Sequence record: OR352939.1
Direction: 5' to 3' (one strand)
Origin: Escherichia phage AV109
DNA length: 64,000 bases
The translations under genes were made by a program, and so were the position numbers. The notes below the pieces were generated by a model that was given only the letters and a program-made list of their open reading frames with translations, was not told the DNA's origin and did no database searches. Numbering within the stretch: the stretch's first letter is position 1; each line of letters begins with the position of its first letter. This document shows, one piece after another, positions 32,212-42,754 of the stretch.

Positions 32212-33355
32212 GGTCGTTTTCTATATCTGCTGCAGACGGAGCATCAGAAGTTTTAACCGGAACTTTAGTTGTTGCTTTGCAATTAATAAGGTCGTTAACA
32301 GCGTCATCAACTTCTTTAATAGAAGAGATAGCACCTAGTTTATATTTAGTTTCAATTGCATCTCGGAAAGGTTTGTGTTTAAACAAAGGTCCCCAGAATT
32401 CTACACAATCAGTAGCTTTAGCACGCCATGATTTTTCTTCACGAATCATTTCACCTGTTTCTTCGTCAAGGAATTCGCGAGCATACCAACCGGCTTTAGG
32501 CTTAACTACAAAACCAATTTCAGTTGCCATTTCTAACAAGCCACTGAATGGGTCAATACCGCCATCAAAATTAACCGTGATTGGGAAAGTAGATTTTTCT
32601 TTAACGGTGCGAGATTTTTCTGCTTTCAACGTGAAGTCATAACCGGTCAATTCTGTACCTTCTTTAACCTGACGTTTAGAGATAAAGAATACAGTGTTAG
32701 CAGAATAAAGAATACCTGTACCACCACCCATAATCTCTTTAGGATACAATCCGCCGATTTCCATTGCTGTATGGTTGATTGCAACACACGGAATATCTTT
32801 AATAGTCAGATAAGGAGTCACAATACGGAAAAGAGATTTAAGTGCCTTAGCACGAGACATATCACCTACAACTTTCTCGTTCAATGCATCTTCAGTTTCT
32901 TTCTTAGATGCAGTATTACCGATTGAATCGATAAAGATAATAACTTTATCACCCCGTTCAATCGCGTCAAGCTGATTAGTCATATCAACTTTAAGTTGTT
33001 CGACGGATTGAATCGGAGTATGAACTACACGGTCTAAATCAACACCCATTGAACGAAAATAAGATTCTGAAGCACCAAATTCTGAATCATAGAACAAACA
33101 AATTGCATCTTTATATTTCTTCATATATGCTGCAACCATGGTCAGTCCAAACAACGTTTTAAAGTGTTTAGAAGGAGCAGCAAAAATAGTCAAGCCTGAT
33201 TGCAATCCTGCATTCAGAGCACCACCTAGTGCAATATTCAACATTGGAATACGAGTAGGGACTTCATCACGATTATTAAACAGCTTAGACTTAGTCAAGT
33301 CTGCAGTCATTTTAGAAGTAGAAGCTTTAATCAGACGAGATTTTAAATCAGACAT
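32183..33355 (-). CDS. uvsX: UvsX recombinase (RecA-like)
   Basis: 390 aa; RecA-fold P-loop region (IFAAPSKHFKT) and T4 UvsX N-terminus MSDLKSRLIKASTSKMTA. Confidence 0.9.
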   Translation of the reverse strand: MSDLKSRLIKASTSKMTADLTKSKLFNNRDEVPTRIPMLNIALGGALNAGLQSGLTIFAAPSKHFKTLFGLTMVAAYMKKYKDAICLFYDSEFGASESYFRSMGVDLDRVVHTPIQSVEQLKVDMTNQLDAIERGDKVIIFIDSIGNTASKKETEDALNEKVVGDMSRAKALKSLFRIVTPYLTIKDIPCVAINHTAMEIGGLYPKEIMGGGTGILYSANTVFFISKRQVKEGTELTGYDFTLKAEKSRTVKEKSTFPITVNFDGGIDPFSGLLEMATEIGFVVKPKAGWYAREFLDEETGEMIREEKSWRAKATDCVEFWGPLFKHKPFRDAIETKYKLGAISSIKEVDDAVNDLINCKATTKVPVKTSDAPSAADIENDLDEMEDFDE

Positions 33356-33453
33356 TGTATTTTTCCATAGGCATCATTATATTTTACTCATGTTTAAAAG
33401 ATAAGATGATTATATACTAAGGGTTATACAGCATTTAAAACTTTAAATGGCTC

Positions 33454-34002
33454 TTAACGAGCCCATTTGATAATTTCTGTAATCAAATAATTACGTTCGC
33501 TTGCATTAAATCCTATAACTTTGTTAGCACCATCATGATTAAGTAATTGATACGTTTGGATTTTGTTATGAATTGCAAACTCTTCAAAATGTGAAATGAC
33601 TGTATTAAAACCGAATGAAGACAAAGTAATAAGGTCGTCTTCAAAACTTTCAGTCATTTCGTTACGTGTTAAAATAATTGTGAACACATCATGGTTTTGG
33701 CAAAGACGAACATAATCCTGTTCATAAACGTCAAGAACCGAGTCCGCATCTTGTCGAATACGTCCATAAACCCAGTTACTAATATATCCACGGTCTAACA
33801 GATAAATCTTAGTAGGGTCTAAATAATTCAACATCGTTTCGAAACAGCCAACTTCATTTCGAGACTTAACATCGAAACGTCCATCAACTGTTCGTTTAGG
33901 GAAATCAATTTTTACATATCTTTCACTAATTTCCATTATGTCATTAATGAAAGTTGTTTTACCAGCATTATCCGGTCCATCTACTAAAATAATTTTAGCC
34001 AT
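33454..34002 (-). CDS. P-loop kinase, thymidylate/dNMP-kinase-like
   Basis: 182 aa; Walker A GPDNAGKTT and DRG motif (LLDRGYISNWVYG) as in TMPK-family kinases; sits where T4 has segA/bgt. Confidence 0.5.
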   Translation of the reverse strand: MAKIILVDGPDNAGKTTFINDIMEISERYVKIDFPKRTVDGRFDVKSRNEVGCFETMLNYLDPTKIYLLDRGYISNWVYGRIRQDADSVLDVYEQDYVRLCQNHDVFTIILTRNEMTESFEDDLITLSSFGFNTVISHFEEFAIHNKIQTYQLLNHDGANKVIGFNASERNYLITEIIKWAR

Positions 34003-34003
34003 T

Positions 34004-34903
34004 TTATTCCTCGATTACGACATCTTCATATTTAGGTATATTATATGGTGAAGAAATTAAAGCATTAAAGTAGATGAACTCACCAAGACCTGGATGAAAT
34101 ACTTCTTCAGGATTTTCGAAATATTGAATCTTCGGACGTCCTTTAAGAATTTGATAGTACTCAGTTTTAGTTGGTTTAAAAATTCGAATCAACGCTTCTT
34201 CAGGATACTTATTTCTGTCAAAGCTATTATTTGGATCGGTTATATAAAGCGGTTGACCTAATTGAATTGCGCATTCAACAACTTGTTCAAAACGATAGCA
34301 TGGGTCACTAATTCGAAATGGATGAAAAATACCATCTAGATGAATAGGAGCCAAATCACCTACAAGACGCTGCATGATGGAAGGACGTATAACTTTCTGC
34401 GTTACGATAATCTTATTACCATCTGCACCTGCGTTAACCAGCACTTCTTTTTGACGTTCATTCAACACAGTTGTTTGGATTGAACGATTAACCGACAATA
34501 TGTCGGTTTTTAAGAATTCGTCAATATAAAAACGTGGTTTATTAGGGTCTGCGGTGATATTGAAATTGAATTCTACATCAAAAGCGCCGTCATATCCAGT
34601 GATATCTGTGATTAGAAAATCACAATCATAATAAGCAATTAATGAATCAACCACAAATTCATTTTCAGACCAGAAATATTTACGAGTGTTATACGCGTTA
34701 TCTTTATACCATAATGGAACAAACTTAAATTCTGGAAAAAGACGTTCGCATTCTTTAATATCAGATGCATTACGTGGATATGTAATCACATCACCCGGAT
34801 TAGCACGGTGCAAATGAAGTTGGAAGTTGCCATCCTTAAGGATAGCATACTGTCCAGTTTCATAAGACCGCATACTCAAGATAGGTACGCGGAAAATAGC
34901 CAT
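34004..34903 (-). CDS. Hypothetical protein in the bgt slot (candidate transferase)
   Basis: 299-aa ORF tightly packed between the P-loop kinase and the gene 42 homologue; no motif recognised. Confidence 0.45.
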   Translation of the reverse strand: MAIFRVPILSMRSYETGQYAILKDGNFQLHLHRANPGDVITYPRNASDIKECERLFPEFKFVPLWYKDNAYNTRKYFWSENEFVVDSLIAYYDCDFLITDITGYDGAFDVEFNFNITADPNKPRFYIDEFLKTDILSVNRSIQTTVLNERQKEVLVNAGADGNKIIVTQKVIRPSIMQRLVGDLAPIHLDGIFHPFRISDPCYRFEQVVECAIQLGQPLYITDPNNSFDRNKYPEEALIRIFKPTKTEYYQILKGRPKIQYFENPEEVFHPGLGEFIYFNALISSPYNIPKYEDVVIEE

Positions 34904-35619
34904 TAGTCAAGGAATCCTTTAACATAATCAAAATCACGTTCAAACACATGGGCACTTACCATGGTATGAGTATAATCACCAACTTCTACACCACATTCGT
35001 TAGCGATATAATGAAGTAATTTTCCTTGGAGATAAAAATCCAACTGCATAACAACAGCACAGTTCTGGGAACGCATATGACAGTGGGTATAAAGCTTACC
35101 GTCACGAATATAATAGGTCACTGAGTCAGTACATGGATATTCAAGCGTTTCGTCTGAATCAAGCAAAGCCTGATCAGAACTTTCTAGAATTTGGAACACA
35201 ACTCTTCGGGAGTTAGGCTTCTCTTTAAGTTCTTTTAGAAGAGCTGGTAATTGAGCCGCAATGCGAGGACCATAGAAAGTGTTGAAGTTCGCCGGCAAAA
35301 CATCTGATTTTGGTTTAGAAATAAATTTAGCGACATTAGGATATGCCTTAAACGCTTCTTCTGCGTTGGTACCACCAGAAATCATAAACTTCCAGAAGTC
35401 TTCGGCATATTCATAAGAGATGCGGTTAATACGTGGGTCGGTCATTTTGAATGATGATGGAGTGTCAACAACTACTGTCATAGACCCAATTTCATTACAA
35501 CGTCCAATACGAGAATCAGTTACGAATTCCGGGTTTTCTAAAATTTCACGATTGACTGCTTTAAATGCGGCTTGAAAATCTGCGGCTTTGATATATTTCA
35601 TTGTGTTATGTTTTCCCAT
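34903..35619 (-). CDS. 42: dCMP hydroxymethylase-like (thymidylate synthase family)
   Basis: 238 aa; TS-family active-site region (YPCTDSVTYYIRDGKLY, HMRSQN); position before gene 43 as T4 gene 42. Confidence 0.65.
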   Translation of the reverse strand: MGKHNTMKYIKAADFQAAFKAVNREILENPEFVTDSRIGRCNEIGSMTVVVDTPSSFKMTDPRINRISYEYAEDFWKFMISGGTNAEEAFKAYPNVAKFISKPKSDVLPANFNTFYGPRIAAQLPALLKELKEKPNSRRVVFQILESSDQALLDSDETLEYPCTDSVTYYIRDGKLYTHCHMRSQNCAVVMQLDFYLQGKLLHYIANECGVEVGDYTHTMVSAHVFERDFDYVKGFLD

Positions 35620-35661
35620 GTTTACCTCAATACAATTTATTATATACTCAATTTGTAAAGC

Positions 35662-35901
35662 TTATTTGAATTTCTTGGCAATGTTGATATAACGTAAAGC
35701 TTCAGTATCAATACTTCCAAGAACACTATGAAGAAATGCATCAGCGTAGTATTCCAATTGAACAGGTTCTTTAATCACTTTAGCCGCTTTGGTTTCAAAC
35801 AGGCCCATCAGGGCCTTTTTAAGAATTTGTTCGTTAGTGTTCAGTTTAATAGTCAAAATCTCTTCGTTAAGTTTATAATTAAAAGTTTTTCTAGAAATCA
35901 T
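35662..35901 (-). CDS. Hypothetical protein
   Basis: 79-aa ORF. Confidence 0.4.
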   Translation of the reverse strand: MISRKTFNYKLNEEILTIKLNTNEQILKKALMGLFETKAAKVIKEPVQLEYYADAFLHSVLGSIDTEALRYINIAKKFK

Positions 35902-37067
35902 TCCGGGTACCTCAAAGCGTCATCAGAGTTAGTTATATCAATAATAGATATAGAGTTTTCTGCTAACCCGTTTTTAGATAATTGACGTTTATAATATCTT
36001 TCACAATATGTACACGTCGTCCCGCAGATTTCATTAGCACAATCGAAATCTGGATGTCTGAACCACCTTTTTTCTAAAAAGCCATCTAACAAAGAGGTTT
36101 CAATATTTACTGTATGTGAAAACTCAGTTTCGTTTTCAAGAGTGAAAATGGTCTCTAAAGGCTTCCACAGTTCTAACAAATTACCTTCAAACTTTTCAGA
36201 AGCGTATGCTTCAAGAACTTTCAAAATGTAGTCTGTGCTACCTGTACGTCCTGAAACTTTGAATTGAGTGATACCAATATCATTATAAAGTTTCAAATCT
36301 TGAGGACGAACAAAACGAGTTCTCAACCAGTTAAATGGGTCTGTATCACGAGCTTTAATACAGTGCTGCATAGGATATCCGTTTAAGGATTTAGCATCAT
36401 CAGCTGTAACATCAGTACTATGGAAAATATAGCAAGAGTCACGATAGCTACAATGTGTTGTATACCCTTTACCAGCATTAGAACAGAACTCATTTACAAG
36501 AACTTCAAATATTATATTGTTCTTATTGCAAAACTCTGCTGCACGCTTCAGGAAAGAAACTGAACGGTTCTTATGAATTCCGCAGCAGACCTTTTTGATA
36601 TTATACTGGTCATGCAAGTATTTGATTTGAGTTACAGCATCGACATGTAGAATTGTTGAAACTTCAATCTCAATGTCTTTATTGACTTCACGAACAATTT
36701 CCATAACAACAGGGTTAGCGATAGTAATACGCCATACGCCTATTGACCAAAGATACTGAACATAATCCTGAATAGCTTTCTTCTTCCACTCAACTAGTTC
36801 TCTTTTTGAACCAGGATTTATCGTGTTGAGTGTATAGTTAAAGCAAATACCTAATTCGTTACAACGTTTAACGTAGTCTTCTAACATCTTTTTGTCAACG
36901 TCAGGAAGCCTAAAATCAGGTCTGGCTGCTACAAAAGCCATTTCTCTTGTAGAGCCATATACTTCGTTTATCAAGCTATTAGGATAGGTTTTATTGAGCT
37001 CTACGATTTTATCAAGAAGAGCTAAATCAAAATTCGTTCCGATTTTAAAAGTATTCATTTTTTGCAT
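35898..37067 (-). CDS. U32-peptidase-family-like protein with Cys clusters (putative Fe-S enzyme)
   Basis: 389 aa; blocks resembling the U32 family (ICFNYTLNTINP, EVLVNEFCSNAGKGYTTHCSY, FKVSGRTGS) plus C-terminal CANEICGTTCTYC; assignment from motif recall only. Confidence 0.35.
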   Translation of the reverse strand: MQKMNTFKIGTNFDLALLDKIVELNKTYPNSLINEVYGSTREMAFVAARPDFRLPDVDKKMLEDYVKRCNELGICFNYTLNTINPGSKRELVEWKKKAIQDYVQYLWSIGVWRITIANPVVMEIVREVNKDIEIEVSTILHVDAVTQIKYLHDQYNIKKVCCGIHKNRSVSFLKRAAEFCNKNNIIFEVLVNEFCSNAGKGYTTHCSYRDSCYIFHSTDVTADDAKSLNGYPMQHCIKARDTDPFNWLRTRFVRPQDLKLYNDIGITQFKVSGRTGSTDYILKVLEAYASEKFEGNLLELWKPLETIFTLENETEFSHTVNIETSLLDGFLEKRWFRHPDFDCANEICGTTCTYCERYYKRQLSKNGLAENSISIIDITNSDDALRYPE

Positions 37068-37113
37068 CTCGCGTTAATTGATGCGATGGTTTTTGCAGGT
37101 CTTACTTAAATTA

Positions 37114-37515
37114 TTATAGATTCGGTTTATACGATTTAAATGTTTCGAATTCGCCTTTATTCATAAGAGCTTTGAATTCGTCAGGACGCATAGCTTTGTC
37201 GTCGATAATCCAATCATATACTGGTTTATGTGTTAGCAAATTATGGTACTTCAAGCCAATGTTTGCCAAGTTCTGAATCAGACTTGGGAGAATGTCAATT
37301 GCTATACGACCAGGACCTACTGACTTCATACCGCGAGCAGTGTAAAGCGTTATGGTATGCCCTGCATCATACAGGGCATTAATGGCAGACACCATTTCGA
37401 CGTCTGGTTTGAAGTTCACGTAATCACGATTGTTATTCCACTCTGTTATACAATCATCGACATCAAAACAAAGATTAAGCATGTTTTCTACACGGTGCAT
37501 TAGATTCGTTCCCAT
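37114..37515 (-). CDS. HAD-superfamily phosphatase (KdsC-like small sugar-phosphate phosphatase)
   Basis: 133 aa; DxD motif I (CFDVDDCIT) near N-terminus. Confidence 0.5.
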   Translation of the reverse strand: MGTNLMHRVENMLNLCFDVDDCITEWNNNRDYVNFKPDVEMVSAINALYDAGHTITLYTARGMKSVGPGRIAIDILPSLIQNLANIGLKYHNLLTHKPVYDWIIDDKAMRPDEFKALMNKGEFETFKSYKPNL

Positions 37516-39185
37516 TGATGAGTGATATCGCCACCGATTGGACGATAGGAAACACCAGTTTCTTTATCAGTTAGTACCCATTTACCAGGATTTTTTGTAA
37601 TCAGAGTAGCCGTTACAGGTTCTGCTACGTCATAACTAATAGAGCCGTCCTGAAGTACACGGCCCATGTTACGTAATTGCTTAGTCAGAAGTTCCATACC
37701 TTTATAATATGCGGCTACCGCTTTAAGTGGATTATTCTTGAAATAACCACCTAATGCAATCCAGATAATTGCCACAGCCAAATGATGATATTCATTAAAC
37801 GAACTCAGCTTTCCATATTTGTAAACTAATGGATTGATGTTAATAGTCACATTACAAGTTGTTTCATCAATAGTAAACTGTCCCCAGGTCGGATTAGCAT
37901 TGAATTCATCATAACCTGAAACAGCATAAAGCACTTTAGCTTCATCATACAATTTTGGCCCGTAAATCTTGGTTTCACCAAAATATCCACGAGGGTCGAT
38001 AAATTTGACTTCGCCGTTATCAGTAATCATAGTATTACTGAAGTTCGGGTCACCATGAATAACAGAGTACTGTCCCTGAGAACGGTTATGATAACGAATA
38101 AGGTGTTCTAAAGCTTGTTTCAGCATTGGCTTCAGACGTCCAATCTTAGTGTAGTTCACATGTGTGATTTTACCAAATGAATCAATCAACGGTTGAATGC
38201 TTTCACAACGATCAATAACTTTCGTATAGAATTCTTTAGTGAAATCACGACGAACAGTTTCAGGACTTACAAAATAAGTGTCTGTGCTGAATTTCAGTGC
38301 ATCTAAAATTGCATCAACAATTTGTGGACGAGCAAGACTTGATTTGGATTTAATATATTCAAATGCCGGCTTACCTTTAATGCGTTCCATTTCAAAGTTA
38401 TTTTCATTAACAGAAACTAACTGAGGAACTGAATCTGATTTCACTTTAAGATACCATGAAATCTCATCTTTCTGAAGAGCTCGACCTTGTTCAGTTAATG
38501 CGAATTTAGTTACAGTTTCTTCACCAATTTCAACTGCATTAAAACTACGATTAAGTTCACGAACTTCATGAGCCTTTTCAAGTTTAGGCATATCACCAAG
38601 GTCGATGATATTCATAAGCTCTGATTTATTGAATGCGCCGCTGTAAAGGAATTCTACGAAATCACGTCCTTTGCAGTATTCATGAATTTCCTCATCGGTA
38701 GAACCCATGTAGAATTCCCAGTCTTTGAACTGGTAAATTCCCACAACATTACCACCTGTTGAACCTACGTTAGTGATATTTTCACCATCGAAATTATATC
38801 GACATTCGTCACCCTTAACATAGATTGCGTTAACATTCCAAGACCATGAACCAAAATCAGGAATAATATCACACCAGTTAACAATTACGTTATGGCCGTC
38901 TAAATCTTTGTGTAATTTAGCAAGAGCATAAGCAGAACCATACGCTTCATCGACTGTACGAATAGTCACATTGAACCCTTCTTGCTCACAATAAGCTCGA
39001 ACAGTTTCAGCAAATTTTGAATGAACTACTACAATAATTTCATCTGCGCCAAGGTCAGAATAAATTGTATACAAATTGCTCAGAATAGTGTCTTGTTTAT
39101 AGTTAACAAGCACCTTAGGAATATGGTGAGTAATTGGATATAAACGAGTTGCCAATCCAGCACCAAGAATAACAGCTTTTTTCAT
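37500..39185 (-). CDS. Bifunctional sugar-1-phosphate nucleotidyltransferase / sugar kinase (APH/choline-kinase-like C-terminal domain)
   Basis: 561 aa; N-terminal NTP-transferase signature (KAVILGAGLATRLYPITHHIPKVLV); C-terminal phosphotransferase motifs (HGDPNFSNTMI, KFIDPRGYFG). Confidence 0.6.
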   Translation of the reverse strand: MKKAVILGAGLATRLYPITHHIPKVLVNYKQDTILSNLYTIYSDLGADEIIVVVHSKFAETVRAYCEQEGFNVTIRTVDEAYGSAYALAKLHKDLDGHNVIVNWCDIIPDFGSWSWNVNAIYVKGDECRYNFDGENITNVGSTGGNVVGIYQFKDWEFYMGSTDEEIHEYCKGRDFVEFLYSGAFNKSELMNIIDLGDMPKLEKAHEVRELNRSFNAVEIGEETVTKFALTEQGRALQKDEISWYLKVKSDSVPQLVSVNENNFEMERIKGKPAFEYIKSKSSLARPQIVDAILDALKFSTDTYFVSPETVRRDFTKEFYTKVIDRCESIQPLIDSFGKITHVNYTKIGRLKPMLKQALEHLIRYHNRSQGQYSVIHGDPNFSNTMITDNGEVKFIDPRGYFGETKIYGPKLYDEAKVLYAVSGYDEFNANPTWGQFTIDETTCNVTININPLVYKYGKLSSFNEYHHLAVAIIWIALGGYFKNNPLKAVAAYYKGMELLTKQLRNMGRVLQDGSISYDVAEPVTATLITKNPGKWVLTDKETGVSYRPIGGDITHQWERI

Positions 39186-39212
39186 GTTGTGGTCCTCATT
39201 GGTAAGTAGGAG

Positions 39213-39240
39213 TATTGTACACTATTCTAGTTAAAGCATT
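39213..39240 (-). promoter_or_regulatory. Candidate MotA-dependent middle promoter (MotA box AATGCTTTA + TACAAT -10) upstream of the nucleotidyltransferase-kinase gene
   Basis: Minus strand reads AATGCTTTAA-N12/13-TACAAT, then GAGG RBS and ATG at 39185. Confidence 0.4.
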
Positions 39241-39370
39241 CATACTTTGCTTGTAGTCCAATCATAATCCATCCAATTACAAGTGTTGGAATCATTACCG
39301 GAGCCGTTAAGCTCCAGTAGATAGTCATGACAAGCATCAATAGTAAAAGTCCTATTGTTATTGCTTTCAT
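39227..39370 (-). CDS. Small membrane protein (about 47 aa)
   Basis: ATG 39370 overlapping stop of SIS gene (ATGA), GAGG RBS; translation MKAITIGLLLLMLVMTIYWSLTAPVMIPTLVIGWIMIGLQAKYECFN; T4 has membrane protein Imm in this interval. Confidence 0.3.
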   Translation of the reverse strand: MKAITIGLLLLMLVMTIYWSLTAPVMIPTLVIGWIMIGLQAKYECFN

Positions 39371-40002
39371 TGTTCGCCTCGTAACATGGCACCTAGTGCA
39401 CCGCCTGGATGGAACTTAAGGAAATCATTAGAGGTAAATCCACGTTCAGACGAAAGGTTGATAGCAAACGTATCGATAAGCGCTAACAACAATGTAGTGG
39501 ACATTGTCGGAGCTAAAGAGTTCTCGTCAACTTCTACCGCGATACCAGTACAGAACGTATAATCAAAAAGAGCTTCGTATTCTTGTGGAATGTCAGGGTT
39601 ACAATGTAACAGAATCTGTTTAACCTGAGGACGAATCATACGAAGATGTTTAGCAACACCTATCATTTCTTCAGTCTTACCAGAACGACTAATATGAATC
39701 AACACGTCATTAGGTGCAATAAATCCTGCGTCACCATGAGAATAATGCCCAGTGTTCAAATACATGCTAGGAATACCTAGTGAAGCAAATGTCTCGGAAG
39801 CTTTAGTTGCGATATTAGCATTCTTACCAACACCTGTAATAATTACCCGGCTTTCATAATTACTAAGTCCAGGGCGTCGAAGAGTTTCTAGAATAGCATT
39901 ATAACGAGCAGGGTTTTGACTAATTACTTTGGCCATAGCGGCCAAAGAAGAAGCTTGTTTTATGATTGCGTCAATAGCGATAGTAATAGGAGTAGTTTTC
40001 AT
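39367..40002 (-). CDS. SIS-domain sugar-phosphate isomerase, KpsF/GutQ-type (arabinose-5-phosphate isomerase-like), no CBS domains
   Basis: 211 aa; ITGVGKNANIATKASETFASLGIPSMYL, HGDAGFIAPNDVLIHISRSGKTEEM, LAPTMSTTLLLALID, FHPGGALG match the KpsF/GutQ SIS-domain pattern. Confidence 0.6.
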   Translation of the reverse strand: MKTTPITIAIDAIIKQASSLAAMAKVISQNPARYNAILETLRRPGLSNYESRVIITGVGKNANIATKASETFASLGIPSMYLNTGHYSHGDAGFIAPNDVLIHISRSGKTEEMIGVAKHLRMIRPQVKQILLHCNPDIPQEYEALFDYTFCTGIAVEVDENSLAPTMSTTLLLALIDTFAINLSSERGFTSNDFLKFHPGGALGAMLRGEQ

Positions 40003-40042
40003 ATTTCTCTCATTTAATTAGTTTACCGTCCATGGCATTATA

Positions 40043-42754
40043 TCAAAAATCGAACATATCGAACAGAGATGCTTTCTTCTCGTAATCGAGTTTCGCTGCT
40101 GATGTGAATCCTTCAAGTGGTTTAATAAATGTCTTCTCAAGGAGAACAGTGTAGTCCATCCAATGAAGTACGTCGTCTTTAATTAAATCTGTGATTTCAG
40201 TACCAGAAGGCCATGCGATACATTTATCACCGAATGGGTTTCCTTCACGTAAAGGCAGAACATATACTTTTTCACCTTCTACAACTTGTGGTGCATCAAT
40301 ATTACCTTTGATAGCTCGGTTATATGTCAGAATTCCACGAATATGAAACGGGCATTTAGGACCAGGGAATCCACCGACATCATATTTAGCAATGTTATTC
40401 GCAGAAGATACCGACGCGATGCTAATATAATTCAATTGACGGAATTCTTTTTCAAACTCTTTAAAATATTCTTGTAATGATTCTTCACCTTCTTGAAGCA
40501 TACGACGAATACATTCTTTAAGAGCTTTCTGTACTGCTTTAGGAGTCGAAGATTTCTGAGTCTCTAGACCCATGATTTTGAGTTTAGGCTCAGCATAACG
40601 AGTGCCTTCCATATCCCACACGTTTAATGCATAACGTTTCTTACCAGTCCAGAATCCACCAATACCTTTAGAACCGAGCGGAGGGCCAGCAATAGCTTCT
40701 CGGTCCATGAACATTAAGTGTTGTTTATTGTTCATGTATTCACACATTTCACGGAAACCTCTATCAATAGCTGGTTCCATACGTTCACGTGCAAACTTAT
40801 CTAAGAAGTCTACCCAATGGTTTGTATCACGGAATTTAGATTCACCAACCTTATCGATAATTTTATCAGCAGATACGTAAATAGAGTCTGTATCACCATA
40901 AAGAACGAAAGCTTCACCTTCTGTACCACAAACTTCATTCAGATATTCATTAACTTTACGTTCAATCCACTGTAAAGCCATTTGACCAAATGTTGTGATT
41001 GCAGTTGCATTACGCAAATCATAATAACGGAACCAAACGTTTCCAAGTGCACCATAAAGTGAGTTGATAAGCAATTTACGGTTAATTTGGGCAGTCATAC
41101 CCGCAACTTCAGTACGTTGAGCTCTAAACAACATTTCATTAAGAGATTTAGCAGACAACTTTTTAATCTTTTCTTTAATCTCATCGCTGAAGTCGAAACG
41201 ATAATCAACATCTAATGGTTCGTCAACAGAAAGATTAGGATTATGCAATGCCTCTTTAATTATTTCACCATTACGTTGAGCTGCAAGCATGTAACCTTTA
41301 TGTTCTTTACGTTGATTAAAGACCTTAGTGATTTCAGTTGGAACTACACCATCACGGTCTTTATAATACATCATGCCGTTAGGAGAACAACTGTACACAT
41401 CTGAAGGACGTTCAGCGATTGCGTTAATATAATCATGTAATGGAGCTACTTTAAACGTTCCTGCTATTGTTTCTGGGCTAATATTCACTTGGCGAATGAT
41501 GCTTGGATACAGAGATGTAAGGTCGAAACTCATTACATATTTGTATCGATTTGGAATAGGTTCCTTAACAAAAGCGCCAGGATAAGGTTGAACCGGGTGA
41601 GAACGACCTTGTGGAATCACCTTGTTCTGCTCTTTAAGGCTATTAAAAATAATAGCATCCCAAGTTTTAATTGGACTGAACACAGATTGAATCTGAATTT
41701 TAGCATAATAACCCATGTCCAAGCTCAAGTTGATGAACTGACGCTTAGAATCAATTTGCAATACACGATACACGTCGATAATGTTATAAGAAATATATCG
41801 TTGGTGATTGCTTTCACGAAGCTTAGAAATAGGGCCGTCATATTTCAGTTTACCAACGTTCAATTCAAATTCTGAAATGTAATCCAGAGAATACGACGGT
41901 TGATTGGTAAAAGAGAATTTTTTGTAAAGGTCAATGTAATCAAGAACAGAGATACCGAACAATGTAATGATTTCACGAGAACCATACATGTTTTCGATAA
42001 CTTTAACACGAGTTTTACGATGTGGCGATAAACGTTTCGCAGTAGATTCGCCAAAAATATTCTTGATTCGGTTATACACATATGGAATATCAAATGACTC
42101 AACGTTCCATCCAGTCAAAATGACAGGAGTTTTCTGTTGCCAGAAGTTGAGATATTCCATCAACAATTCTTTTTCGTTATCGAACGGCATATAAATGATT
42201 TTATCGATAATTTCAGATGGAACTTCATCACCGCCTTGTTCTTGAAGCTTAGCAGCGATTTCAATAGACCATTCTTCTACATTACCATACGGAGAATTCA
42301 ATAGATCAAATACGTAGAACCTGTCGTCAATTGAGTCATAATGGGTGATAGCATCAATAGGATGCTTTGCTTGTGCCGGCTCAGGGAACCCGTCCGGAGA
42401 TGTTACTTCGATGTCGAAGTTAGCCACACGAATTTTTGTATGGTCGTATTTGATTTCATAGTTATAAGTGTCAGACAAATACGCCAATTTGAAATCGTCC
42501 ATGCCAAGTGCTTCAAGTCCGATATCTTCCATGCGTTTAATCCATTGGGAGGCATCACGCATATTAGCGAACAACTTACGAGTACACGGCTTACCGTAGA
42601 TATCGAAATATTTCGTAGCCTGACTTTCCGGACAATGAGCAAACAGTGATGGTTTATATTCTACTTCACGAGTACGTTCACGGCCATTAGAATCGATGTA
42701 ACGTTCAAAAATTGAATCACCAATCTGTTCAACCGTTAAGTAAAATTCTTTCAT
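40043..42754 (-). CDS. 43: DNA polymerase gp43 (family B)
   Basis: 903 aa; exonuclease and polymerase motifs including YGDTDS; size as T4 gp43. Confidence 0.95.
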   Translation of the reverse strand: MKEFYLTVEQIGDSIFERYIDSNGRERTREVEYKPSLFAHCPESQATKYFDIYGKPCTRKLFANMRDASQWIKRMEDIGLEALGMDDFKLAYLSDTYNYEIKYDHTKIRVANFDIEVTSPDGFPEPAQAKHPIDAITHYDSIDDRFYVFDLLNSPYGNVEEWSIEIAAKLQEQGGDEVPSEIIDKIIYMPFDNEKELLMEYLNFWQQKTPVILTGWNVESFDIPYVYNRIKNIFGESTAKRLSPHRKTRVKVIENMYGSREIITLFGISVLDYIDLYKKFSFTNQPSYSLDYISEFELNVGKLKYDGPISKLRESNHQRYISYNIIDVYRVLQIDSKRQFINLSLDMGYYAKIQIQSVFSPIKTWDAIIFNSLKEQNKVIPQGRSHPVQPYPGAFVKEPIPNRYKYVMSFDLTSLYPSIIRQVNISPETIAGTFKVAPLHDYINAIAERPSDVYSCSPNGMMYYKDRDGVVPTEITKVFNQRKEHKGYMLAAQRNGEIIKEALHNPNLSVDEPLDVDYRFDFSDEIKEKIKKLSAKSLNEMLFRAQRTEVAGMTAQINRKLLINSLYGALGNVWFRYYDLRNATAITTFGQMALQWIERKVNEYLNEVCGTEGEAFVLYGDTDSIYVSADKIIDKVGESKFRDTNHWVDFLDKFARERMEPAIDRGFREMCEYMNNKQHLMFMDREAIAGPPLGSKGIGGFWTGKKRYALNVWDMEGTRYAEPKLKIMGLETQKSSTPKAVQKALKECIRRMLQEGEESLQEYFKEFEKEFRQLNYISIASVSSANNIAKYDVGGFPGPKCPFHIRGILTYNRAIKGNIDAPQVVEGEKVYVLPLREGNPFGDKCIAWPSGTEITDLIKDDVLHWMDYTVLLEKTFIKPLEGFTSAAKLDYEKKASLFDMFDF

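Follow-up and report, generated by a model that had tools for sequence, protein, structure and literature searches.

The 561-aa nucleotidyltransferase/kinase of Escherichia phage AV109 is an orthologue of RB69 gp52:53 and very probably supplies UDP-D-arabinofuranose for DNA modification

The DNA of phage RB69 carries arabinose, and in 2018 the product of ORF53_52c was proposed, together with the SIS protein ORF055c, as a candidate for the synthesis of UDP-arabinose (PMC6024577). ORF053c and ORF052c constitute one gene of 561 amino acids (aa), whose split in the RB69 record is due to a sequencing error, and upon expression the RB69 protein gave a band fitting the predicted 63.9 kDa (PMC6024577, Thomas et al. 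2018). A paper published in Nucleic Acids Research in 2026 revised the modified base, which is 5-hydroxycytosine and not hydroxymethylcytosine, is made via a thymidylate-synthase-like (TS-like) gene and carries one or two D-arabinofuranose (Araf) units (PMC13326640). Mono- and di-arabinosyl-5-hydroxycytosine replaces cytosine in the DNA of RB69-type phages and blocks many restriction enzymes (PMC13326640). The same paper assigned RB69 gp55, gp52:53 and gp51 to the conversion of ribulose-5-phosphate (Ru5P) via Araf5P, Araf-1,5-bisphosphate and Araf-1-phosphate (Araf-1-P) to UDP-Araf and cited He et al. (Nat Chem Biol 2026) for the biochemical proof in coliphage HY126. According to its summary of that work, HY126 AfhE converts D-arabinose-5-phosphate (Ara5P) to the 1,5-bisphosphate, from which the HAD protein AfhF removes the 5-phosphate before the N-terminal domain of AfhE makes UDP-Araf; both an Ara5P 1-kinase and a UDP-Ara pyrophosphorylase activity are reported there for AfhE (PMC13326640). 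Here we describe the corresponding gene of Escherichia phage AV109. It resides at positions 37500..39185 (- strand, stop codon included) of a stretch of 64,000 nucleotides (OR352939.1), hereafter called the window, and encodes a bifunctional, AfhE-like protein.

A sequence-only reading of this DNA had proposed that a sugar-1-phosphate nucleotidyltransferase and an APH-like kinase are joined in a single polypeptide of 561 aa, an architecture that was borne out by Pfam, by APH matches of homologous proteins, by Foldseek and by the predicted fold. Since publications of 2018 and 2026 already cover the protein with its architecture, role and mechanism, the proposal is a rediscovery, and the mechanism it contained is partly wrong, as discussed below. 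The open reading frame (ORF) 37500..39185 (-) comprises 561 codons followed by a TAA stop codon and lies among genes of a T4-like phage, e.g., those for UvsX, the family-B DNA polymerase gp43, RegA and the clamp loader. The source of the window is a Mosigvirus, an RB69-like T-even phage. The 1686-bp segment is 100% identical at the nucleotide level to the corresponding segments of the Escherichia phages AV114 and AV115, and its identity to those of approximately 150 other Mosigvirus (RB69-like) genomes is 96-99%. The deduced protein shares 98.9% of its amino acids with RB69 ORF052c plus ORF053c, and BFVD models of both RB69 halves superposed on the AlphaFold2 (AF2) model of the 561-aa protein with a TM value of 0.96. 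PHROG 4098 was matched from end to end (residues 1-561, E 1.7e-294), and in 364 phage records the match extends over at least 80% of the query. The AV109 protein also exhibits the features of the AfhE/gp52:53 family, namely a full-length two-domain product in the range of approximately 550-565 aa and a gene flanked by those for an arabinose-5-phosphate isomerase and a small HAD phosphatase within a cytosine-modification cluster. RB69 ORF53_52c (gp52:53), HY126 AfhE and DLP3 gp82 belong to the same family, have the same architecture and do not differ in any substantive respect; the AV109 gene is intact, while that of RB69 is split in its GenBank record. Thus, we concluded that the gene is very probably the Mosigvirus counterpart of RB69 gp52:53 and HY126 AfhE, supplying UDP-D-arabinofuranose as the donor for the arabinosylation of 5-hydroxycytosine in the phage DNA. 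In more than 150 Mosigvirus records the gene is labelled 'hypothetical protein' or 'GlmU'. Because most GenBank records still read in this way, a correct annotation is of value, as is the correction of the mechanism, according to which the two fused domains do not act in consecutive steps.

The sugar-1-phosphate nucleotidyltransferase domain, annotated here as UDP-arabinose pyrophosphorylase, comprises residues 1 to about 205 (38571..39185, - strand) and was assigned by Pfam, PDB profile and Foldseek matches. As the sequence-only reading had anticipated, the Pfam family NTP_transferase (PF00483) was detected above its cut-off (39.1 versus 21.2 bits), the alignment comprising only the profile positions 1-101 of 245. 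A model of high confidence was obtained by AF2 (pLDDT 90.4, pTM 0.87), which shows a Rossmann-like nucleotidyltransferase fold followed by an APH-type kinase fold. Foldseek with this model, a full-length search dominated by matches of the N-terminal domain, gave RmlA, MurU (4y7u), HddC and LicC at E values of about 1e-8 and target-normalised TM values of 0.52-0.69. The G-x-G-T-R-L signature claimed for the N-terminus is indeed there, albeit not in its exact form. The sequence GAGLATRL (residues 8-15), followed by YPIT and IPK24, aligns with AAGLGTRL of LicC in the register G10-L-A12-T-R-L, in which Ala takes the place of the second Gly; across the members of the family, position 12 is occupied by G, S or A. 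Residues G10, R14, K24, D106, D195, D198 and K201 do not vary among 29 homologues with identities as low as 28%, and the Asp residues D106, D195 and D198 are by analogy probably involved in metal binding.

Since LicC, a CTP:phosphocholine cytidylyltransferase, was the best match of the N-terminal domain in a single-sequence search of the PDB (E 2e-5), we also considered that the protein might join a choline or ethanolamine kinase to a phospho-alcohol cytidylyltransferase, which would produce a CDP-alcohol like LicC/LicA; one metagenomic homologue (P0083) is even named 'choline kinase' by its source. With the profile of the 29-sequence family, HddC (9e-13) and LicC (2.7e-12) were found, along with mannose-1-phosphate and glucose-1-phosphate nucleotidyltransferases. 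LicC/LicA and the LicCA fusions of CDP-choline synthesis act on an amino alcohol and have neither an isomerase nor a phosphatase as partner, whereas the gene studied here always has genes for an arabinose-5-phosphate isomerase and a HAD phosphatase of the sugar-phosphate type as neighbours and is fused to both in some homologues. As the phage DNA moreover carries arabinose (PMC6024577, PMC13326640), we regard a non-sugar substrate as very improbable.

The second domain (residues ~206-507; 37665..38570, - strand) has an APH/choline-kinase fold and was assigned as an anomeric kinase by its fold, its motifs and the Pfam matches of homologues. Both Brenner-type motifs mentioned in the sequence-only reading are present, HGDPNFSN at residues 377-384 and IDPRGYFG at residues 396-403. 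Within these, H377-G-D379-PNFS-N384 and I-D397-PRG are invariant in the same homologues, as are K227 and E241, which in the AF2 model are located in a strand (224-229) and a helix (232-247), respectively. Hence, the Brenner motif, the metal-binding Asp and the Lys/Glu pair of the N-lobe occur together with a bilobal, eukaryotic-like kinase fold whose C-lobe is helical as in APH. Basic residues (R213, K322, R326, R399 and K417) are invariant in the family as well. Pfam gave a divided answer on this domain. With the AV109 sequence itself no match to APH (PF01636) was obtained at E<=0.01, while 11 of the 29 family members passed at E<=0.001, among them P0056 and P0087 with scores of 25.6 and 34.2 (cut-off 23.2). 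Membership in the APH family is therefore supported transitively and by the fold, and not by a direct score. On account of the APH matches in these 11 homologues and the invariance of K227, E241, H377-G-D379, N384 and D397, we consider the claim of a kinase domain to be confirmed. The C-terminal tail (residues 508-561; 37503..37664, - strand), discerned by the AF2 model and the alignment, forms short beta strands, is weakly conserved among the homologues and was modelled with lower confidence (pLDDT 67-83 over ten-residue blocks versus at least 90 elsewhere).

The fold of residues 206-561 effectively refutes the label 'bifunctional protein GlmU', by which the protein itself would acetylate a sugar, and likewise a GT-A glycosyltransferase that would itself transfer a sugar. 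Several GenBank records name GlmU, GlmU models of NCBIfam were weakly matched (22-23 bits against cut-offs of 367-505), and the N-terminus had at one time been placed in the GT-A superfamily by CDD (PMC6024577). The GlmU matches, however, span only the first ~100 residues, i.e., the nucleotidyltransferase core that is shared; the C-terminal part is a kinase and not a left-handed beta-helix acetyltransferase, and separate glycosyltransferases have been assigned to the transfer steps (PMC13326640). We thus attach next to no probability to either function.

A role in a common pathway is suggested by the genomic context. The order SIS isomerase, nucleotidyltransferase/kinase, HAD phosphatase is kept in the Serratia phage LC53, in the Acinetobacter phage AM101 and, with a protein of only 26% identity, in a cyanophage. 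Furthermore, distant homologues of 926-955 aa combine HAD, SIS, nucleotidyltransferase and kinase in this order on one polypeptide, and these fusions indicate that the four activities serve one pathway. In AV109, the upstream SIS isomerase would convert ribulose-5-phosphate of the host to Ara5P, whose C1 would be phosphorylated with ATP by the C-terminal APH-fold domain to give arabinofuranose-1,5-bisphosphate. The HAD phosphatase, encoded downstream and presumably translationally coupled, would then remove the 5-phosphate, and the resulting Araf-1-P would be converted with UTP to UDP-Araf and pyrophosphate by the N-terminal domain. Finally, phage glycosyltransferases would transfer Araf to 5-hydroxy-dC in the DNA. 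While the two domains with their catalytic motifs, the orthology to RB69 gp52:53 and the conserved gene trio with its natural fusions are direct observations, the order of the substrates and the use of UDP are taken second-hand from the literature. Because a separate phosphatase works in between, the two fused domains would act non-consecutively, in the second and fourth step of the four-step route to UDP-Araf. A phosphate at C5 blocks closure of the pyranose ring, while free arabinose is mainly a pyranose. Phosphorylation of Ara5P at C1 therefore fixes the furanose ring without need of a mutase, and the start from a 5-phosphate probably explains why Araf is found on the DNA.

The sequence-only reading had suggested that a free sugar is converted straight to the NDP-sugar. 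Its assignment of an anomeric (C1) kinase, a pyrophosphorylase and arabinose as the sugar was right (PMC13326640, PMC6024577); by the summary of He et al., however, the substrate of the kinase is the 5-phosphate, and the HAD protein acts between the two domains (PMC13326640). A related order, in which the phosphatase first releases free D-arabinose from Ara5P, the kinase then acts on C1 and the N-terminal domain produces UDP-Ara, so that both domains work consecutively, has several points in its favour. The Pseudomonas pathway of MupP (a HAD protein), AmgK and MurU proceeds in precisely this order (PMC5371407, PMC5371409), the nucleotidyltransferase domain is homologous to MurU, and the kinase fold is one found in free-sugar anomeric kinases, NahK and MTR kinase among them. 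For RB69 and DLP3, the steps are also given in this order in Table 1 of PMC13326640. Yet the DNA carries the furanose (PMC13326640), whereas free arabinose is mainly a pyranose, and the bisphosphate route yields the required ring form without a mutase, a family not matched by any of the proteins scanned with Pfam and NCBIfam at 33454-40002. In view of the homology to MurU, the fold shared with NahK and MTR kinase, the wording of that table and the second-hand knowledge of the primary data of He et al., we retain the free-sugar order as an unlikely alternative.

Several points count against the bisphosphate route and the assignment of the AV109 gene to it. The substrate order rests on the summary of He et al. 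given in another paper (PMC13326640), Table 1 of which speaks of a protein that 'dephosphorylates Araf5p to Ara' and of one that 'phosphorylates Ara to Araf1p'. All kinase models of Pfam remained below threshold with the 561-aa sequence, the best being Fructosamin_kin (17.1 versus 22.4), and searches of the PDB with the sequence and with the family profile gave no solved kinase. Nucleotide specificity cannot be read from the sequence.

The bisphosphate route has a counterpart in the synthesis of ADP-heptose (GmhA, HldE, GmhB) and GDP-heptose (HddA/HddC), in which a SIS isomerase, an anomeric kinase yielding a bisphosphate, a HAD phosphatase and a nucleotidyltransferase cooperate. HldE is a kinase/nucleotidyltransferase fusion whose domains work at non-consecutive steps. 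Judged by established pathway knowledge, the logic of these pathways is identical to that proposed for arabinose, the sugar being a heptose instead of a pentose, and HddC was the best profile match of our N-terminal domain. In HldE, a kinase with the ribokinase/PfkB fold is joined to a transferase of the cytidylyltransferase type, while HddA is a GHMP kinase. As the kinase folds differ, the kinase part of the phage protein is an analogue and not a homologue of the HldE and HddA kinases; with its APH-fold kinase and its RmlA/MurU-like N-terminal domain the protein does not belong to the HldE type. FKP of Bacteroides, an L-fucokinase/GDP-fucose pyrophosphorylase, converts a free sugar to the NDP-sugar on one polypeptide. 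It is the textbook case of what the sequence-only reading had proposed and differs from the phage protein by its GHMP-family kinase, its free fucose substrate, the consecutive steps and the absence of a phosphatase. In the recycling of MurNAc to UDP-MurNAc by MupP, AmgK and MurU, a HAD phosphatase takes part too, and MurU was one of the best structural matches to the N-terminal domain, but the activities reside on separate proteins, dephosphorylation comes first and the kinase phosphorylates a free sugar, MurNAc being the substrate. AmgK has the fold of the APH family; no AmgK structure was found among the structural matches. By the published account, the pathway logic would thus be of the ADP-heptose type rather than of the FKP or the MupP/AmgK/MurU type. 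The pathway is of relevance for phage therapy and for the enzymatic synthesis of rare NDP-furanoses.

Homologues of the protein are present in 57 Acinetobacter phage records. In the Synechococcus phage S-SRM01 (L014, 4411-6823), the trio of SIS, nucleotidyltransferase/kinase (26% identity) and HAD genes is located among genes for two NDP-sugar epimerases, a NodZ-like fucosyltransferase, GT2 proteins and a methyltransferase, and no TS-like gene is annotated within the 11.5-kb stretch shown. This cassette may feed a glycan rather than DNA. Homologues of 890-955 aa were found at L002 (8001-10781), L008 (8001-10862) and L010 (1-2144 and 8001-10679). P0084 and P0089 fuse HAD, SIS, nucleotidyltransferase and kinase, whereas in P0118 (L010) only the HAD part is supported by Pfam; the genes of the two L010 paralogues adjoin NDP-sugar epimerase and GT2 genes. 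One such fusion, P0091, comes from a eukaryotic transcriptome. The contigs with the 890-955-aa homologues look giant-virus-like, since they also carry a 1553-aa PolB, MutS7-HNH, Rpb2 and Rpb10. Because the trio is kept among glycan genes in a cyanophage and fused on giant-virus-like contigs near PolB, MutS7-HNH, RNA polymerase subunits and glycosyltransferases, the isomerase, nucleotidyltransferase/kinase and phosphatase cassette could be a general and widespread means, beyond DNA modification, of making an NDP-pentofuranose de novo from a ketose-5-phosphate, an idea that we put forward tentatively and hold to be somewhat less probable than a restricted use. If so, a single fusion protein might carry out the entire conversion of Ru5P to NDP-Ara for virion or host-surface glycans. 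A scan of GTDB genomes disclosed three loci only and was uninformative on cellular homologues; at least one of the three probably belongs to a T4-like phage contig that had been mis-binned.

The ends of the gene were inspected as well. According to the sequence-only reading, the start of the 561-aa gene overlaps the end of the HAD phosphatase gene. The overlap is real, but of opposite orientation. Both genes are on the - strand, and the TAA stop codon of the 561-aa gene (37502-37500) overlaps the ATG of the HAD gene at 37500 by one nucleotide (ATC-TAATG-CAC); an alternative ATG at 37515 would give an overlap of 16 nucleotides. The two genes also overlap in AM101 (by 4 nucleotides) and LC53 (by 17 nucleotides), which fits translational coupling. 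Upstream of the 561-aa gene, a Shine-Dalgarno sequence GAGGA was read from the sequence 7 nucleotides before the ATG (39193..39197, - strand). The MotA-box-like middle promoter noted there could be recovered as TGCTTTA-12 nt-TACAAT (39214..39238, - strand), ending 28 nucleotides upstream of the ATG. The pattern TGCTTYA-N11-13-TANNNT is enriched in the window, with 16 occurrences versus 1.7 expected, a number reached in none of 100 shuffles; the coding strand carries 12 of these matches. The box is a consensus match and as such no proof of promoter activity. Further matches of this type reside within coding sequences, one in the kinase domain approximately 400 nucleotides upstream of the HAD start (37908..37933, - strand) and one in the isomerase gene (39764..39787, - strand); these could be internal middle promoters or chance matches. 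Sigma-70 promoters (23 versus 27.8 in shuffled sequences) and intrinsic terminators (5 versus 3.9) were not enriched at 33300-40200 and were uninformative on transcription units. Between the isomerase gene and the 561-aa gene lies an ORF for a strongly hydrophobic protein of 47 aa (MKAITIGLLLLMLVMTIYWSLTAPVMIPTLVIGWIMIGLQAKYECFN; 39227..39370, - strand; PHROG 3610, E 6.8e-27), which is an annotated coding sequence in AV114 and is found at the same position in LC53, where it is labelled 'transmembrane segment(s)'. The MotA-like box of the 561-aa gene is situated within the 3′ end of this conserved ORF.

The other genes of the cluster are likewise on the - strand. The HAD-family phosphatase gene (37114..37515), the counterpart of RB69 gp51 and AfhF with a role taken from PMC13326640, encodes 128 aa (start at 37500) or 133 aa (start at 37515). 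Its product has the DxD motif FDVDDCIT and matched the capsule-biosynthesis phosphatase TIGR01689 of NCBIfam (E 3.8e-13, below the cut-off of this model) and PHROG 1238 (E 1e-42). The gene at 39367..40002, corresponding to RB69 gp55, was assigned to a SIS-domain arabinose-5-phosphate isomerase by Pfam SIS (4.8e-10), by the NCBIfam models KpsF/GutQ (5.2e-32) and KdsD (2.1e-30), both below their equivalog cut-offs, and by PHROG 5670 'arabinose 5-phosphate isomerase' (E 1.6e-116). At 34903..35619, an orthologue of RB69 gp48 encodes the TS-like 5-hydroxy-dCMP synthase that makes the acceptor base (function from PMC13326640; Pfam Thymidylat_synt, 2.3e-15). The protein shares 233 of 238 residues with PDB 9iqc/9ir2, in agreement with the HY126 crystal structure to which PMC13326640 refers, and it is therefore probable that HY126 is a near-identical Mosigvirus. 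The 299-aa protein encoded at 34004..34903, without a Pfam or NCBIfam match, takes the place of RB69 gp46:47, for which a function as the first DNA arabinosyltransferase using UDP-Ara has been proposed, and is a candidate for this function by position and literature (PMC13326640). A P-loop protein of 182 aa (33454..34002), corresponding to RB69 gp45, which is labelled 'nucleotide kinase' (PMC13326640), revealed a marginal similarity to dTMP kinase (E 0.007); it is kept beside a glycosyltransferase in Mosigvirus, LC53 and AM101.

Directly after the HAD gene and two genes downstream of the 561-aa gene, a peptidase-U32 homologue of 389 aa is encoded (35898..37067, - strand; RB69 gp50). Members of the U32 family hydroxylate RNA, RlhA yielding 5-hydroxycytidine and TrhP 5-hydroxyuridine, and for UbiU/V prephenate is an oxygen donor independent of O2 (PMC5727448, PMC6599085, PMC10990095); all of these relatives are hydroxylases that depend on prephenate and not on O2. 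By analogy, phages of facultative anaerobes may make 5-hydroxycytosine by a route that depends on prephenate and needs no oxygen. Such a route is not mentioned in PMC13326640. The protein is 82-100% identical across 221 phage records and far better conserved than the 561-aa protein, exhibiting 82-88% identity where the homologue of the latter has 42-73%. Acinetobacter was not among the named groups of these 221 records, and AM101 has no U32 gene, although Acinetobacter phages possess the other genes of the cluster. An ORF of 79 aa (35662..35901, - strand), of which only a 53-aa version is annotated in AV114, overlaps the U32 stop codon and lies where related phages have a chorismate mutase gene. 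It was rejected as a diverged mutase, as it showed neither similarity to that mutase by BLASTP nor a match to a Pfam family. In LC53 the gene immediately after the U32 gene encodes a type II chorismate mutase (Pfam CM_2, 1.7e-11), and the TS-like hydroxylase gene comes next (L012, 5992-7502; also L013). Homologues of the LC53 chorismate mutase were found by tblastn in 54 phage records and, where annotated, reside beside a TS-like or a peptidase gene.

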